Shown here: piece by piece, positions 1,614 through 29,742 of the stretch
Position numbering within the stretch: the stretch's first letter is position 1
How the letters are laid out: each line of letters begins with the position of its first letter
Assembly (NCBI GenBank): GCA_025210235.1
Contig: JAOASG010000044.1
Location: forward strand, 193,075 to 225,074
Direction of reading: 5' to 3'
DNA: 32,000 bases
Origin: Vallitalea sp.
GTDB lineage: Bacteria > Bacillota > Clostridia > Lachnospirales > Vallitaleaceae
Program-made: the position numbers and the translations under genes
The notes under the pieces: generated by a model
The model's input: only the letters and a program-made list of their open reading frames with translations
What the model was told of the DNA's origin: nothing
Database searches by the model: none

Positions 1614-1792
1614 ACCTAGACCCTCCAATTCTTACAATGCTAAATTTTAGTGTCCTCTTCGAAGAGATGTAATTAGGTTACGATATTATTATATGTATAT
1701 TAATTAATATTACACTAGTAAATACTGTATTTAAAACTAAAAAAATGCAATTTTAATAATTAATTTTTTTTGGAATTTGTGGTTTGACGTGT

Positions 1793-2183
1793 GGCTCGGG
1801 GAGGGTATATGGTATTATAATAACTTGCCTTACCTGTGAAGCGGCCGGTCAGCGTTATTCTAATACCATATACCCTTGTCATGGATACGTTATTGCAAAC
1901 GATAGTTTGTGGGGTCAAAGGTATTTTCAATAGTTGATGATAGCTACTATTTTTAAATATCACCACTAGCCTAATACTAGCCAAGTAGGTTGATAGGTAT
2001 TAAAAAGTAGTGACTTTAAATCTTCCTTAGAAAACACTTTGTGAATGGAAAAATGGTTTCCGTTAAGAAAATTAAATGTTTGACTGCAAGGAGTTTTTAA
2101 TTTTTAGGAAACCATTTTGGAATGAACTTAGTTTTTCTTAGGAACGATTTAACTGAACGGATTTTTAATACCTATCAACCTAC
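1793..2183 (+). ncRNA. unclassified ORF-free structured element, copy A (hairpin H1 + linker + ~200-nt rod)
   Basis: No credible ORF. Homologous to 21683-22171. H1 at 1803-1875 has 22-nt arms. The rod has a perfect 22-bp base (1985-2006 with 2162-2183) and a perfect 12-bp inner stem (2050-2061 with 2107-2118). Plus strand is only tentatively favoured, because the conserved internal loops are purine-rich on that strand. Confidence 0.6.
1803..1875. repeat. conserved hairpin repeat H1, copy A
   Basis: Arms GGGTATATGGTATTATAATAAC (1803-1824) and GTTATTCTAATACCATATACCC (1854-1875) pair at 21 of 22 positions. The 29-nt loop contains GAAGCGGCCGGTC. Differs from 21693-21766 by 2 substitutions and 1 indel. 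Confidence 0.85.
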
Positions 2184-2224
2184 GACCGTCTTGTACAGTA
2201 TTTAGTTTGACGAAAACCTCAAGT

Positions 2225-21497: not shown

Positions 21498-21682
21498 TAC
21501 AATCACTCATTTCTAATATATTTCCACATAAATAAATGTAAAAACATATTTTAGTTTCTTTTCTTTACATAATATCCTTAGGGTATTATACCCTACTAAG
21601 CATATCTAGTCAACCGAACTAATTTATGTCTAAACTAATTCTAAGATAAATCATTCCAATATAAATCCATTAGTTCACATAT

Positions 21683-22171
21683 AGCTCGTGATGGGTATAT
21701 GGTATTATAATAACTTGCCTTACCCTGAGAAGCGGCCGGTCTGCGTTATTCTAATACCATATACCCTTTTGAGGGTACGTTATTGCATACTTGAATATGA
21801 AGTATTTATCGTGAGTACCTAGGCTTGACTATTAGCATACTAGACAAGTAAGTATTCCTTTTTAGTTAACTTAAGTAATAACTATTATATCTTTTTCAGT
21901 TTAGTCTGCTAAGCCCTTCTTTAATATTGACTTACTACCACATTAATTAGCCCAGCCAATGGGTATTTATTTATGGAAGTTTTATTTATAAATGATTCGC
22001 TAGACTTACTTAATGAATGGAAATGAAATTTTCCGTGAAAAAAACACGACGTTTTTTTAGCTCATCTGAAGCACGGACGCTGAATATGAGCGTTAGGAAA
22101 ATTTCATTGGAATGAATTTAGTAAGTCACAAGAATTTATCCTAAAACTGGAATAAATAAATACCCATTGGC
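21683..22171 (+). ncRNA. unclassified ORF-free structured element, copy B (paralogue of 1793-2183)
   Basis: H1 at 21693-21766. Conserved linker GGTACGTTATTGCATAC. An extra ~95-nt domain is closed by AGTAAGT/ACTTACT. The rod has a perfect 20-bp base (21955-21974 with 22152-22171), an 8-bp stem (22003-22010 with 22120-22127) and a perfect 12-bp stem (22023-22034 with 22096-22107). Strand is tentative. Confidence 0.6.
21693..21766. repeat. conserved hairpin repeat H1, copy B
   Basis: Same 22-nt arms as copy A (21693-21714 and 21745-21766). 30-nt loop TTGCCTTACCCTGAGAAGCGGCCGGTCTGC. Confidence 0.85.
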
Positions 22172-22201
22172 GGAAGACTATGTTGATATTAATCTTCTAA
22201 T

Positions 22202-24190
22202 CTATTTGAATTGATTTTCATGTTTTTTAAAGAAATCAAAACGTGGCTCTAAATATTTAAGTTTATGATCAGTAGCATTTTCAGCAAAATAATGTATAGG
22301 TTCAAAAATATAATCCCAGTTCCATATATTCGCATTTACATTTAAATATTCTCTTACCAATTCACAGCTGCTTGGAGCAATTGGATGTATTAATGTAATA
22401 GCAGTACGCACGCCATGAAAAGCATCTATTAATACTTGTTTTCTCAAATCATTATCATCATTGGTATCTGCTTGTTTCATTTTATTAACCCAGTACTTAT
22501 TAAGTTTACGAATATAACTATCTAAAACATATATAATTCTATGAAAATCATGATTATACATATGTTTTTCATAATTTAAAACAGCATCTTCAGATAGCTT
22601 TCTTATCTCTTCGCTAACTTCTCCTTGTGGAATACTTGAATCAAAATATTTTTGTGCCGTATAGAAACTAGATCTAATAATTCTATTAAATACATTAGTA
22701 AGTAAGTTTCCGTCTTTTAAAACAGTATCATTTCCTGTTCTCTCTTCTTCATCCATAAAAGCTTCCGGCATAAAGCTAACACTTTTCTTAGCTAATCCTA
22801 GACTTAAAAAGTGCATTCTTAACTGTTCATGTGTGTAATGATCAAGTAATTCATGAGCCATAGGTGGTTTAATTTCACTACTACTACTTGCTTTTTTATC
22901 CATAAATAATACATGATTATTAGGAATTAAATGAGGTAAATTAATATTATCAAAATTTAAGTCTTCTTTGTTTTTATCAAGCAACGCTAAAAACATTCCC
23001 ATTTCTGCAATACCATAAAAATATATATTATCTTCACCTATAAATTGGTATACTTTAGAATCTTTTGAGTTAAACCATTCTTTCCAAGCATCTTGATCTT
23101 TACCAATAGATTCAAGATATGTTCTTGCAAAAGATATTGGTGCCCATAAAGATTCAGGCCAAACCCAAAAAGTTAAATCTTTTAAATCTTCTTTTTCTGG
23201 AACACTAATACCCCAATCAATATTACCAGATAATCTAAATGGAACTAATGTTTTACCTGTTCTAAATCTTAATCCCATTTCATCAAATACTTTTCTAGCC
23301 TTATCTCTATCATCTAAATTATCAAATACAAAAGTAATAGAAGGTTTTTTTGGTTCATCAATCATTGTATGTTTAGGTAATTTCTCTTGTATACTAGATA
23401 TATCACCTTCTATTTGCTTACGTTTAACATAAATAATTGGTGGTTTTAGAAATTCTTCTATAGTTTTTAATAAATATTTACGACAATTAGAATTTTTCTT
23501 AAGGTATTCTATATACTCTTTCAAAACATCTGTATATTCATCTAATTTGAAGTACCAATTTGTAACTTCTCTAAGTTCTGGTGTTTTTCCTGATAAAACA
23601 CTTTTAGGATCAATTAACTCACTAGGCATATACATATGTCCTAATGAACATTCATCAGCATATCCTTTATCAGAGTTACAACCTTCTATAGGACATTTTC
23701 CTACTACTTGTCTACCATTTAATAAAACTTTTTCTTCTGGATCATAGAACTGTGGAGTAGATAATTTAACTAGATAGTCATTATCATATAACTTATTAAA
23801 TATCTCATCAGATACTTGTTTATGAATTTCACTAGCTCTATCTAATGCTGAAGCAGCATATAAATTAAGATTAATTTCATATTTATCTAGTACTTCTTTT
23901 TGTTTTATATGATTTTCTCTTACATAATCTTCAATGGAACCTTCATATTGATTTTCATCAACTAATTTTTTATAACTTGCTAAAATAGGAGAACCATAAC
24001 AATCCGTCCCAGAAACAAAAATAACATTTTCTTCTCCAATTCTGTCTCTTAAAAATCTTGCATAAGTATCTGCATGAATAAATACCCCGCCAACATGACC
24101 AAAATGTAATTCTTTATTACCATAAGGCATACCTGCTGTTACAATAGCTCTTTTTGGAAAAATAGGTCTTTTTCTTGTATACTCTTTCAT
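22202..24190 (-). CDS. metG: methionine--tRNA ligase-like class I aminoacyl-tRNA synthetase (divergent, long form)
   Basis: ORF 22202..24235. HFGH (HIGH) motif and GTDCYGSPI. The zinc knuckle CPIEGC...ECSLGH and PSELIDPKSVLSG align by eye to E. coli-type MetRS. KASSS replaces KMSKS. Start trimmed to ATG 24190 (MKEYTRKRP), 7 nt after AAGGAG. The ORF extension overlaps the T-box terminator. Confidence 0.8.
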   Translation of the reverse strand: MKEYTRKRPIFPKRAIVTAGMPYGNKELHFGHVGGVFIHADTYARFLRDRIGEENVIFVSGTDCYGSPILASYKKLVDENQYEGSIEDYVRENHIKQKEVLDKYEINLNLYAASALDRASEIHKQVSDEIFNKLYDNDYLVKLSTPQFYDPEEKVLLNGRQVVGKCPIEGCNSDKGYADECSLGHMYMPSELIDPKSVLSGKTPELREVTNWYFKLDEYTDVLKEYIEYLKKNSNCRKYLLKTIEEFLKPPIIYVKRKQIEGDISSIQEKLPKHTMIDEPKKPSITFVFDNLDDRDKARKVFDEMGLRFRTGKTLVPFRLSGNIDWGISVPEKEDLKDLTFWVWPESLWAPISFARTYLESIGKDQDAWKEWFNSKDSKVYQFIGEDNIYFYGIAEMGMFLALLDKNKEDLNFDNINLPHLIPNNHVLFMDKKASSSSEIKPPMAHELLDHYTHEQLRMHFLSLGLAKKSVSFMPEAFMDEEERTGNDTVLKDGNLLTNVFNRIIRSSFYTAQKYFDSSIPQGEVSEEIRKLSEDAVLNYEKHMYNHDFHRIIYVLDSYIRKLNKYWVNKMKQADTNDDNDLRKQVLIDAFHGVRTAITLIHPIAPSSCELVREYLNVNANIWNWDYIFEPIHYFAENATDHKLKYLEPRFDFFKKHENQFK

Positions 24191-24232
24191 AATAAGCTCC
24201 TTATATAGTTTGTTTTTAAAATTTTTTAAATA

Positions 24233-24288
24233 CAAAAAACGCTCCTACAAACATAGTATATGTTAAAAAAACATTAGTTTGTAGGGGC
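24233..24288 (-). terminator. T-box intrinsic terminator
   Basis: CCCCTACAAAC (24277-24287) pairs with GTTTGTAGGAGC (24241-24252), followed by GTTTTTTG on the minus strand. Confidence 0.85.
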
Positions 24289-26443: not shown

Positions 26444-26493
26444 AAAAAAATCATGGTGATATATAAGTTTTTACTAATATCACCATGATTTTT
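26444..26493. terminator. bidirectional rho-independent terminator ending the GH112 operon
   Basis: AATCATGGTGATAT (26449-26462) pairs with ATATCACCATGATT (26477-26490), a perfect 14-bp stem flanked by A7 on the left and a T-run on the right. Confidence 0.88.
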
Positions 26494-26680: not shown

Positions 26681-28852
26681 TTAATCACCCACTATTTTTG
26701 CCCAACGAATCTCATAGGCTTCTAAATTCGTATCAAAAGCATTACCTTCTCCATTATAAATTATAGATTTTTGAGGCGTATCTGAATTATTTACTATAGC
26801 ATATTTTTTAATATCAGGATATGCATGTACCTCTACAAAAATATTATTAGCGAACCATTTATATAATTGTTCTTCCTTATGAGCACAATAATACATACTT
26901 CTTAGCAGTAATCGATTATTCTCTTCATTATACGGAAGTCCCGCCATATAAACGCATCTACCTTTTCCATATTCATTAGCGGATAAATGAACTTCTCCAT
27001 TGCTATATTCAATAATTTCTGTTTTTTCACTCAGCGAATAAATATTTTTCATACTTTCTCCAAAATCAATTGGTTTTATTGTATCTTCAGTAATGAAATG
27101 TCTCTCCTCTTGTTCTATATAATATTTATCTGTACTCAAGGAAAAACCTATTTCCTTATCTACTCCTAAAGCATCAGCTAATTGAAAATATTTTCCTTGA
27201 TAGTGTTTTGCAGAAGGTTCTCCTACACCTATAAAACCTCCTCCATTATATATCCATTTCCTAATAATAGTTATAAGTTTTTCATCAAGCCATTCCTCGC
27301 CTCCACTAAATGACGTATTATGGTCTCCAGCATTTATTAATACATCTATATCCTTTGGAATCCCTTTTTCTTTTATCTCACTAAAACTCATAAATGAAAC
27401 ATCTACATTAGCACCACTTAAACATTCTAATATTCCTAGGTATGAATAGATCTGTTTATACCATATGGCATGAGCAACCATATGAGTTTGCCATGATCTA
27501 GTTTTCCCCCATGAGTTAATAATCATAACCTTTAAACCACAATATGGCTTTATTCCTTTTATATTATTATAAATCTCTCTAAATTCATCACATACATTTT
27601 CAATATAATCTATAAATTTAGGAAACTTATAAGCTAGCGATAAATATCCACCATAACCAATTCTGTCAACAGGTTTTCTCATAATAGCACGTCTTGCAGC
27701 TATCCAATTTTCTTTTGCTTCAACTGTAGGATCATTACCTTCTTTAAAAGTATCTGGAAAGAAATAAGGCAAAAATCTACCTTCGGTATATTTGACTCCT
27801 GGAATTTCCGAAATCATCCTTAGTGTAGCTCCATTATTAACAGAACCAATAACAGCATCTATACCTATATTATGGAAATATTCACCATAAGGTTCTGTAC
27901 CAATCCAGTTATCTCCTAAGAACATCATAGCCTCTTTACCTGCTTCATGTACCTTATCAACAAGCTTCTTAGCTGTTTTTGATACAAATTGTTGTTGAAA
28001 ATCCATAAAATCCAAAAATCTTTTTGAAGGTATTCTAAAAGGATTATTATAGTAACCCTGGTCAATTATATCTTCCGGCCTTAATTTATAACCTTTTTCT
28101 TTTTCAAATGCTTCAAATGCTTCTGTCGATACACTCGCACTATAACCAAACCAATCTACAAACTTTTCTTTACCTATATTATTAAATATAAGAGTAAAAT
28201 GATAAAAAAATGTTGTAAATCTTACTACATCACTATAATCATTTTCCTTAAGCCATTTATCAATATACTCCAATATGTACTTCGCAGATTTAGTAGATCT
28301 TACATTAAAAGGGATATCATGTTCTTTTTCTCCCCAGCTATTTGTTATATGATTATACATTTGTGTTGGATCCCATATTGCATATGCCAAAAATGAAACT
28401 GTATATTTATGAAAGAGCTTTGTTTCATAAATTATTACTTTGTTTTCTACTTTATCTATATCCCACTTCTTGGTATCTACAACTTGTCCAGTGGTTCTAT
28501 CTATTACTTCCCACCATTCCTTGGGATTATGAATATAATCAGGTTTTACTTGCTGAGAAAAGTAGTTTTCCATAAAATATATTTCTAACTTATCTGAATA
28601 CGCTAAAACAAATTCACTCATTAAGTAAAACTGTTGGCACTCCTCCATATTTTCCCTTGCAAAATCATTGTGCCCTCTACTTACAAAATAGGTGCTGTAA
28701 ATCTTTGCATCTAATTTTTTAACATCTTCTGAGAGTTTAGTTCCATCACAATCTCTGATTGCATCAGCTCCCAATCTTTCTAATATCTCCTTTGTTTCTT
28801 TTAAAAATCCTTCCTCACTAGGAAGAGTCACATTACCTTTAAATTTTGCCAT
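26681..28852 (-). CDS. gnpA: 1,3-beta-galactosyl-N-acetylhexosamine phosphorylase (GH112, galacto-N-biose/lacto-N-biose phosphorylase)
   Basis: 723 aa. Many blocks resemble Bifidobacterium LnpA as I recall it: LPSEE, GADAIRxxDGT, WEVxDRTTG, YTVSFLAY, VVRFTTFFY, GKEAMMFLGD, PGVKYTEGRFLPYFFPDTF, GYGGYLSLA, GLPY. Confidence 0.9.
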   Translation of the reverse strand: MAKFKGNVTLPSEEGFLKETKEILERLGADAIRDCDGTKLSEDVKKLDAKIYSTYFVSRGHNDFARENMEECQQFYLMSEFVLAYSDKLEIYFMENYFSQQVKPDYIHNPKEWWEVIDRTTGQVVDTKKWDIDKVENKVIIYETKLFHKYTVSFLAYAIWDPTQMYNHITNSWGEKEHDIPFNVRSTKSAKYILEYIDKWLKENDYSDVVRFTTFFYHFTLIFNNIGKEKFVDWFGYSASVSTEAFEAFEKEKGYKLRPEDIIDQGYYNNPFRIPSKRFLDFMDFQQQFVSKTAKKLVDKVHEAGKEAMMFLGDNWIGTEPYGEYFHNIGIDAVIGSVNNGATLRMISEIPGVKYTEGRFLPYFFPDTFKEGNDPTVEAKENWIAARRAIMRKPVDRIGYGGYLSLAYKFPKFIDYIENVCDEFREIYNNIKGIKPYCGLKVMIINSWGKTRSWQTHMVAHAIWYKQIYSYLGILECLSGANVDVSFMSFSEIKEKGIPKDIDVLINAGDHNTSFSGGEEWLDEKLITIIRKWIYNGGGFIGVGEPSAKHYQGKYFQLADALGVDKEIGFSLSTDKYYIEQEERHFITEDTIKPIDFGESMKNIYSLSEKTEIIEYSNGEVHLSANEYGKGRCVYMAGLPYNEENNRLLLRSMYYCAHKEEQLYKWFANNIFVEVHAYPDIKKYAIVNNSDTPQKSIIYNGEGNAFDTNLEAYEIRWAKIVGD

Positions 28853-28858
28853 TATAAA

Positions 28859-29742
28859 TCACTCCTTTACTCCTCCAATACTCATTCCCTGTGTTAATCT
28901 TTTTTGTACTAATATATACAAAATTAATGTTGGGATCATTACTATTACCAACCCTGCATACATTTGCCCATAATTAGCTGCTGCCTTTTGAGATTGCATT
29001 AAATTTATTAATCCTACTGGTAAAGTTTTGGATTCTCCTGGCATCAAGGTTAAAGCTAAAATATATTCATTCCAAAAAGCTAAGAAATTAAATAATATAA
29101 CTGTTATTATGCTAGGTCTTACCATAGGAATCATTATACTAATCATTGTTCTAAAATATCCACAACCATCTATATATGCTGCTTCTTCATAAGTTCTGGA
29201 TGTTGTCTTAAAATAATTAGATATTAAATAGATTGTAAAAGGTATTGCAGAAGCAGCATAAACAATCGCTAATACAACAATATTATCTATAAATAGTCCT
29301 CTTCCTATAATCTTCATAAAATATCTATCCCAACCTAATAACATTAAAAAGATTGGAACAACGATATAGTTTACGTTAATAAAAAGACCAGCCATAAATA
29401 ATCTGTTTAGGATTTTTTTCCCTTAAATTCAAATCTAGCTAAAACATATGATGCTGGAATAGCTACCACCAACAATATAACTAACCCTAAAGATGTTACT
29501 ATAATTGAATTTAAAAAATACTCTCCCATTCTTGCTTTTTCAATAGCATCTATAAAGTTTTTAAAACAAAATCCTTTTGGTATAGCCCAAGGGTTCCCAT
29601 AAAACTCTGAATTTTCTTTTATTGACGCCATAAATACCCATAATACTGGTACTATTATACTAATAGCTAAAGTTATTAATGCTACATATATAAATAATCT
29701 ATAAATATTACTCGCTTTTATCAATTTCTTTTTCTTATTCAT
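28859..29742 (-). pseudogene. ABC sugar transporter permease (MalG/LacG-like) interrupted by a frameshift at an A7 run
   Basis: ORFs 29407..29742 (111 aa N-terminal part) and 28859..29395 (178 aa C-terminal part with an EAA-like loop, EEAAYIDGCGYFRT) together make one ~290-aa permease. They join if the minus-strand A7 (29413-29419) is read as A8 or by a -1 slip. Confidence 0.75.

Follow-up and report, generated by a model that had tools for sequence, protein, structure and literature searches.

The 32,000-nt stretch of DNA analysed here (the window) is AT-rich (28% GC), and its real genes all lie on the minus strand within one housekeeping block: coaD, rsmD, a SASP gene, recG, fakA and onwards to priA, rpoZ, gmk, remA and yicC, after which come a MetRS-like gene and the genes for citrate synthase and lacto-N-biose phosphorylase. 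YicC and RecG are 84% and 79% identical, respectively, to proteins of named Vallitalea species, and RecG is identical to MCT4544222.1 from an NCBI MAG; judged by these two proteins, the host is an uncultured Vallitalea species. Two intergenic regions of the window are unusually long (1629-2224 and 21507-22201), and both house a plus-strand copy of the same element: copy A at ~1784-2185 and copy B at ~21674-22173 (Table 1).

The MetRS-like gene (22202-24235) encodes a 677-aa protein in which the Pfam match to class I tRNA synthetases (M type) spans only residues ~31-268. This gene was found in a second strain (L008) and in the relatives L014 and L015, was missing from the relative L012, and may be an accessory paralogue rather than the housekeeping MetRS. 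An ABC-transporter permease (BPD_transp_1) is present as two adjoining open reading frames of 178 and 111 aa (28859-29395 and 29407-29742), which may reflect a frameshift or a pseudogene; the alignment of strain L008 to the window ends at 28835, with different genes past that point. Between the lacto-N-biose phosphorylase and citrate synthase genes, a 17-bp perfect hairpin flanked by an A-tract and a T-tract (26446-26493) is an ordinary bidirectional intrinsic terminator. The yicC promoter (TTGACT-17-TATAAT, 21613-21585, minus strand) has its -10 box within the 15-nt palindrome AGGGTATTATACCCT (21590-21604; GGTATAATACC in relatives), which may be an operator. Between this promoter and copy B lies an 11-bp hairpin without a U-tract (GAACTAATTTA..TAAACTAATTC region, 21614-21641), where Rfam gave only a chance match to a miRNA model.

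Copies A and B have one order of parts in common: a 5′ hairpin domain (P0/P1), P2, a variable middle, a linker and a rod of ~200 nt. The sequences quoted for both copies in a preliminary description of this DNA were all found where it had placed them. The 5′ domains of the two copies are ~90% identical, with a P1 of 73-74 nt in both, and the spacing from 5′ domain to rod is 175 nt in copy B versus 95 nt in copy A. Copy B had been credited with an extra domain of ~95 nt closed by AGTAAGT/ACTTACT. It does hold ~80 nt more than copy A, and the two heptamers exist (21847-21853/21930-21936); minimum-energy folds, however, pair TTAGCA.ACTAGAC with GTTTAGT.TGCTAA instead, and the pairing of this domain is read from a single sequence, as strain L008 is identical there. 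The apical regions of the two rods differ as described, with two hairpins in B and one in A. The GC content of the element is 34-35% (42-43% in the 5′ domain), compared with 18-30% for other intergenic regions. No open reading frame is common to A and B, every frame being broken by an indel, and a conserved peptide inside the element was rejected.

Table 1 Features of the two copies of the element (window coordinates)
Feature	Position	Strand	Description
Copy B 5′ domain	21681-21783	+	Helix P0 (21681-21691/21769-21783) around P1; RNAalifold consensus of A and B
Copy B hairpin P1	21693-21766	+	15-bp perfect stem, 1x1 loop, 6-bp stem AATAAC/GTTATT
Copy B P1 apical region	21715-21744	+	30 nt, GC-rich, conserved ACTTGCCTTAC...GTCTGCGT
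Copy B hairpin P2	21787-21805	+	ATACTT/AAGTAT; CAAAC/GTTTG at the equivalent place in copy A
Copy B middle	21806-21936	+	~80 nt without counterpart in copy A (alignment and folds)
Linker before rod	B 21937-21959, A 1964-1984	+	ACCAC..TAGCC..AGCCAA common to both, read from sequence
Copy B rod	21955-22171	+	Basal 20-bp perfect stem 21955-21974/22152-22171
Copy B rod GGA/GGA loop	21975-21977/22149-22151	+	
Copy B rod core	22014-22023/22107-22122	+	TGAATGGAAA/TTGGAATGAATTTAGT, conserved
Copy B inner stem	22022-22034/22096-22108	+	13-bp perfect helix
Copy B rod apex	22035-22095	+	Two-hairpin junction
Copy A 5′ domain	1791-1909	+	P0 1791-1801/1879-1893, P1 1803-1875, P2 1896-1909
Copy A rod	1985-2183	+	Basal 22-bp perfect stem 1985-2006/2162-2183; GUA/GGA loop
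Copy A rod core	2042-2051/2117-2132	+	TGAATGGAAA/TTGGAATGAACTTAGT
Copy A inner stem	2050-2061/2107-2118	+	12 bp; single-hairpin apex above
8-nt direct repeat around copy A	left 1782-1789, right 2205-2212	+	GTTTGACG, exact

The basal stems of the rods, perfect over 22 bp in A and 20 bp in B as had been described, are the two longest perfect inverted repeats of the window; the longest arms in 100 first-order Markov resamples had a mean length of 13.3 bp and a maximum of 16. The further claim that these stems are unrelated in sequence does not hold: both contain a GGTATT core and agree at about half of the positions that can be aligned, and are thus diverged homologues. RNA folding gave z-scores against shuffles of -8.0 for B and -11.0 for A, and folding of B with DNA parameters gave a z-score of -10.5. 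At the inner stem (AAAATGGTTTCC/GGAAACCATTTT in A; ATGAAATTTTCC/GGAAAATTTCAT in B, inside a 13-bp helix), the copies differ at five positions and all five are compensated, exactly as first reported. When the rods were aligned rung by rung, 58 rungs proved to be paired in A as well as in B: the copies agree at 37 of them, differ on both sides at the other 21 and never differ on one side only. As the alignment maximised identity, the split between identical and changed rungs is approximate, but the lack of broken or wobble rungs is not. About 36% of the aligned rod pairs have therefore changed between A and B.

Between the helices, the non-complementary loops follow in the same order in both rods: GNA/GGA above the basal stem, a U/U mismatch, GA/GA and GGA/GGA, the last two adjoining the inner stem. 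The conserved loops yield the invariant rod motifs TGAATGGAAA and TTGGAATGAAYTTAGT, and as RNA the rod core reads UGAAUGGAAA ... UUGGAAUGAAYUUAGU. G-U pairs account for 3 of ~136 rod pairs and for none of the 24 in P1, and no wobble intermediate occurs among the 34 changed pairs of rods and P1. P1 is 97% identical between A and B, whereas identity between the rods, counted by rung, is only about 64%, which points to gene conversion of P1 or module shuffling. Strain L008 diverges from the window by 0.44% overall and by 2 differences in the 507 nt of copy B, with an identical middle region; this rate equals the background, so the strain comparison has no power on purifying selection or constraint.

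A covariance model of the A and B 5′ domain found a single further match in ~180 kb of related DNA, in the relative L014 (L014:3627-3698, 44 bits, E ~3e-9; for comparison, covariance models R1 and R2 give copy B P1 94-152 bits). This hairpin has the architecture of P1, with a 15-bp stem, a 1x1 loop, a 6-bp stem and an apical region of ~28 nt; its stems are completely rewritten, whereas the loop flanks ACTTGCYTTAC ... GTCWGCGT are kept. When P1 of A, B and L014 was aligned, 72/72 cells were paired and 13 of 24 pairs were compensated; 0/500 shuffles reached the observed values, and sliding the partners by 1-3 columns left 31-47% paired. The short third helix of P1 also covaries (ACC/GGU versus ACU/AGU). 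The proposal that compensated change maintains the helices is therefore strongly supported, by 21 two-sided against no one-sided changes in the rods and, for P1, by the L014 homologue from another species.

The L014 hairpin lies directly 3′ of the NFACT stop codon, on the same strand, and is followed by the U-tract UUUUCUAUUUUU. The rest of the spacer is a small lipoprotein gene on the other strand, conserved in L015, the sister genome of L014, which does not have the hairpin; an ACCAC..CCTA motif downstream of it, seemingly shared with the element, was rejected because that stretch encodes the conserved lipoprotein. The hairpin occurs without a rod, so P1 is a module able to occur alone, and its site is a third independent insertion site. 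No members beyond A, B and L014 were found in ~180 kb of Vallitalea DNA with blastn, regular expressions and two covariance models with filters off, and no identical multicopy members were found in the ~38 kb of this genome examined. Copies are sparse: two were found in ~38 kb of this genome and one in the 21 kb examined from L014, and ~110 kb from other relatives contained none. Three representatives are known in all, two of them from a single genome.

The three sites have mutually unrelated neighbours: recG and the SASP gene for A, the MetRS-like gene and yicC for B, and the NFACT and lipoprotein genes for the L014 hairpin. The element is missing at the orthologous sites of L014, L015, L012, V. 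guaymasensis, L021 and V. sediminicola. The spacer between the MetRS-like gene and yicC measures 228 nt in L014 and 194 nt in L015, where it contains an ordinary intrinsic terminator and the conserved yicC promoter; V. guaymasensis has 178 nt upstream of yicC, and the 286-nt spacer of L012 holds a different small palindromic element. The recG/SASP spacer is 154 nt in L021 and 188 nt in V. sediminicola (L022), compared with 611 nt in the window. As the orthologous sites of relatives are empty, A and B are lineage-specific insertions and not conserved syntenic genes. The preliminary description had named homologues with unmaintained stems as a refutation; the relatives' same sites, being empty, offer no rod homologue, and the P1 homologue in L014 keeps every pair. 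The intergenic DNA is too diverged for exact insertion junctions to be recovered from the empty-site alignments.

That description had also asked whether the arms might be terminal inverted repeats of a transposable element with target-site duplications. No terminal inverted repeats are common to the copies, and copy A alone has an 8-bp flanking direct repeat, GTTTGACG, a possible target-site duplication or recombination core whose left copy overlaps sequence alignable between A and B; the counterpart around copy B matches at only 6/8 positions (GTTCACAT at ~21673-21680 and GTTGATAT at ~22184-22191). Four independent assemblies of this organism end inside the element (L002 and L003 at ~21720, L007 at 22142 and L020 at 2112, in window coordinates), two of them in a 32-nt block that A and B share without a difference, the other two in rods, which indicates that the element disrupts short-read assembly. 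The palindromic element in copy B's place in L012 (L012:9777-9880; Vallitalea sp., JGI 3300039008) is a three-way junction of ~105 nt upstream of the yicC promoter, with a 20-bp basal stem interrupted by one bulge, two internal hairpins and a z-score of -8.5; its position suggests that this spacer is a hot spot for structured insertions.

Searches against known families were negative. Rfam 15 at gathering thresholds gave no family match over the whole window, and at E<=10 over A and B only sub-threshold chance matches (miRNA, snoRNA and CRISPR-DR models, 10-22 bits); a tRNA/tmRNA search found none, and neither copy had a blastn match among phages or plasmids. The Rfam families covered include OLE, ROOL, GOLLD, raiA, HEARO, 6S, group I/II introns, ribozymes and riboswitches. 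Without a match in Rfam or in the phage and plasmid collections, the element is previously undescribed. The pattern GCCTTACCN{3,5}GAAGCGGCCGGTC had 3 matches in 185,579 species-representative genomes, all in MAGs of 59-69% GC, and the pattern GAAGCGGCCGGN{33,42}ACGTTATTGC had 4 in a metagenome collection, all in contigs of 57-67% GC; this confinement to GC-rich contigs marks the matches as chance, and both patterns are over-specific, the L014 homologue having only ACTTGCYTTAC...GTCWGCGT conserved. When viral contigs were scanned for the 5′ loop, the rod core and the two basal-stem sequences, there were 0 matches, and a guide or spacer role of the basal stems is unsupported, with no exact match in viral contigs. 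A relaxed loop pattern gave 9 viral matches, none of which forms the hairpin. The closest of them (L024:2523-2571, also in L028 and L030; IMG/VR) lies inside a 518-aa primase-like open reading frame and was judged a coincidence; this phage frame contains 13 + 13 nt identical to the P1 apical-loop flanks, without the stem. Intrinsic terminators consist of a short GC-rich stem and a small loop with a U-tract immediately after it; a scan for them found none at the P1 or rod ends on either strand of A or B, and the plus strand has no convincing promoter upstream of the element and no terminator downstream.

Several features distinguish the two strands. The plus strand folds better in every segment tested (-142 versus -123 kcal/mol for A; -145.8 versus -143.7 kcal/mol for B). 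P0 has G-U pairs in A where B has A-U, and such exchanges pair on the plus strand only. The conserved internal loops are purine-rich on the plus strand, and the GC skew of the rods is +0.16 to +0.22, compared with -0.25 for the window. Tandem sheared G-A motifs stabilize RNA, and the purine loops of the element have that form; its GC content is raised, as is usual for structured RNA in AT-rich genomes. We interpret the plus-strand fold as being under selection, probably as RNA. The scarcity of G-U pairs, however, is unusual for RNA evolving by compensatory change and fits a DNA hairpin at least as well as RNA, and helices with almost no such pairs make a single-stranded-DNA mobile element a serious rival. 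Template switching in quasi-palindromes is an established mechanism that would also yield pairs without wobble intermediates, but it should erase non-complementary loops as well, and their conservation counts against it.

Together, these results indicate that copies A and B are paralogues, now diverged, of one modular non-coding element that is low in copy number, derived by insertion and previously undescribed. The reading we favour, tentatively and at somewhat less than an even chance, is that this element is a free-standing plus-strand RNA whose perfect helices would probably be processed by RNase III. We propose that, after insertion into otherwise short intergenic regions of one Vallitalea species, the element would be read from the plus strand, antisense to the neighbouring genes, to give a stable, structured, free-standing RNA. 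Its helices would change sequence only when both sides change, and its loops would be kept in sequence, namely the asymmetric ACUUGCYUUAC / GUCWGCGU of P1 and the purine GNA/GGA, GA/GA and GGA/GGA of the rod. A partner, most likely a protein, is presumed to recognise these loops, and the 20-22-bp perfect helices are predicted natural entry sites for RNase III. Substrates of this enzyme have about two helical turns (about 20 bp or more) of uninterrupted double-stranded RNA, and the genus has an rnc gene (L022). The data show the structure, its conservation, the origin by insertion and the absence from known families, and we infer transcription, its strand, the processing and any partner. Counting against the RNA is that ordinary sRNA genes usually do not occur at three unrelated intergenic sites without flanking DNA.

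Rather unlikely, but the most serious of the rivals, is a non-autonomous mobile DNA element that works through hairpins in single-stranded DNA. Its folded strand would be the target of a recombinase whose gene lies elsewhere in the genome, either an HUH/Y1 transposase (IS200/IS605 or REP-RAYT type) or some other structure-specific enzyme; the perfect helices would come from pairing selection on transposition-competent master copies together with template-switching correction of mismatches, and A and B would derive from diverged master copies. Such an element would account for at least three independent insertions, each missing from the orthologous sites of relatives, as well as for the lack of coding capacity, the virtual absence of G-U/G-T pairs, a fold equally strong with DNA parameters, the modular make-up with P1 alone in L014, and the assembly breaks. 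The lack of terminal inverted repeats and of a consistent target duplication is likewise as in IS200/IS605- and REP-type elements, and all three known copies face the same way with respect to the yicC operon and run opposite to the leading-strand genes. Yet the 32-kb window and the 6.5 kb that adjoin its left end contain no transposase, integrase or reverse transcriptase, and L020 contains no transposase; the copy density is low; and the two ends of the element are unlike, where IS200/IS605-type ends bear similar hairpins. The non-complementary purine loops that template switching should erase are, moreover, typical RNA motifs, and P0 requires G-U pairs. Recognition purely by fold and a few loop nucleotides could also describe a new kind of mobile, structure-defined nucleic acid, a non-coding rod-plus-hairpin unit spreading between intergenic sites that would move either as single-stranded DNA, through a structure-specific recombinase, or via an RNA intermediate; its long helices would be free for rewriting, which would give fully compensated stems without wobble intermediates. 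We regard this as distinctly improbable.

The position of the rods, which begin 30-40 nt past the stop codon of the upstream gene in both copies, fits a cis-acting RNA module carried by the flanking genes' transcripts, that is, on the minus strand of the window; between the upstream gene (recG or the MetRS-like gene) and the next promoter, the module would stabilise 3′ ends, stand in for a terminator or insulate, in the manner of REP, ERIC, Correia or SPRITE elements embedded in mRNAs. The copy B site has an ordinary intrinsic terminator in L014 and L015 and none in the window, the L014 P1 stands directly 3′ of the NFACT stop, on the same strand, before a U-tract, the minus strand of copy B folds nearly as well as the plus strand, and RNase III cleavage is documented for Correia-containing mRNAs (PMC10969869). 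We nevertheless consider such a role improbable, though a little less so than the structure-defined unit: neither A nor B has a U-tract after the rod or P1 on the minus strand, where the conserved loops turn pyrimidine, A loses 19 kcal/mol and the G-U pairs of P0 turn into A-C mismatches. The strand co-oriented with the gene in L014 is the plus strand of the element and not the minus strand, so the situations disagree, and a module of 400-500 nt far exceeds the needs of a terminator. Very improbable, last, is functionless palindromic DNA, in which decaying insertions would have their arms kept complementary only by intramolecular template switching or by mismatch repair in extruded hairpins. 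Perfect Watson-Crick helices without wobble intermediates and the very narrow taxonomic range of the element would agree with it, but the same non-complementary loops and helix order survive in A and B despite the ~36% of changed rod pairs, P1 has rewritten stems but a conserved loop sequence in different species, and the element is richer in GC than neutral intergenic DNA.

Among known systems, prokaryotic MITEs that occur in transcripts (Correia/CREE of Neisseria, ERIC, RUP and QMITE; PMC10969869) resemble the element in being small, non-coding, intergenic, variably present among close relatives and predicted to form very stable rods, with long helices open to RNase III cleavage (demonstrated for Correia elements, PMC10969869; predicted here). 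MITEs have terminal inverted repeats (PMC10969869), whereas the ends of this element, the 5′ domain and the rod base, are not mutual inverted repeats, and its arms are internal and differ between copies. Unlike MITEs, it has no consistent target-site duplication, is low in copy number (2 in ~38 kb) and is GC-richer than its surroundings rather than AT-rich, and its copies are deeply diverged yet structurally intact where MITE copies decay. The BOX elements of Streptococcus pneumoniae are built of boxA, boxB and boxC, and SPRITE elements are terminator-like. The element is like both in its modularity (P1 alone, or P1 with middle and rod), rod-like predicted fold, intergenic position and lack of a transposase link, and P1 in L014 looks terminator-like as in SPRITE; this comparison, which draws in part on PMC10969869, is one of description, with no sequence relation expected. 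BOX, however, exceeds 100 copies per genome and has conserved module sequences, whereas here the helices are rewritten and only the loops conserved. REP/BIME (RAYT) and IS200/IS605-derived hairpins are 20-40 nt long and highly repeated, resemble one another at the two ends of the element and go with a cognate Y1 transposase gene. The element described here matches them in lacking terminal inverted repeats and target duplication, in strand bias and in the weight of structure over sequence, those elements functioning via hairpins in one DNA strand; it differs in consisting of a 74-nt hairpin and a 200-nt rod, in its dissimilar end structures and in having no Y1 gene in the DNA examined.

Large structured RNAs provide the other comparison. 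OLE, ROOL, GOLLD and raiA RNAs share with the element a length of 0.4-0.5 kb, a multi-helix fold with conserved loops and covarying stems, a Bacillota host and a GC-rich intergenic region in an AT-rich genome. These RNAs are widespread and syntenic or prophage-linked, whereas the element occurs at insertion sites in one species (plus one hairpin in a relative), has no Rfam match and has unusually long, perfect helices. The rod of ~200 nt recalls 6S RNA, which is sometimes present as two paralogous copies in Bacillota, but the element has no large central bubble of the open-promoter-mimic kind and no Rfam match, is not conserved in relatives and carries an extra 5′ domain. A GC-rich long intergenic region and covariation are the features sought by the GC-IGR scheme for structured non-coding RNAs (PMC11109978), and the element has both, with 3 unique representatives. 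In that scheme, from the Breaker lab, fewer than 5 unique representatives make a low-ranking candidate (PMC11109978), so the element would rank low or as a mobile or repeat candidate. We thus regard it as a solid but low-ranking candidate, with three representatives in one genus.

Compensatory change between paralogous palindromes alone does not prove RNA function, and the element marks a sequence class that repeatedly breaks metagenome assemblies. If it is a DNA element, it would be an insertion-prone unit recognised by structure, without terminal repeats or a nearby transposase. If the plus-strand RNA is real, it would represent a new 0.4-0.5-kb class of structured RNA with unusually long perfect helices and well-defined conserved loops, for which the natural comparison of two copies would already map the nucleotides that matter.
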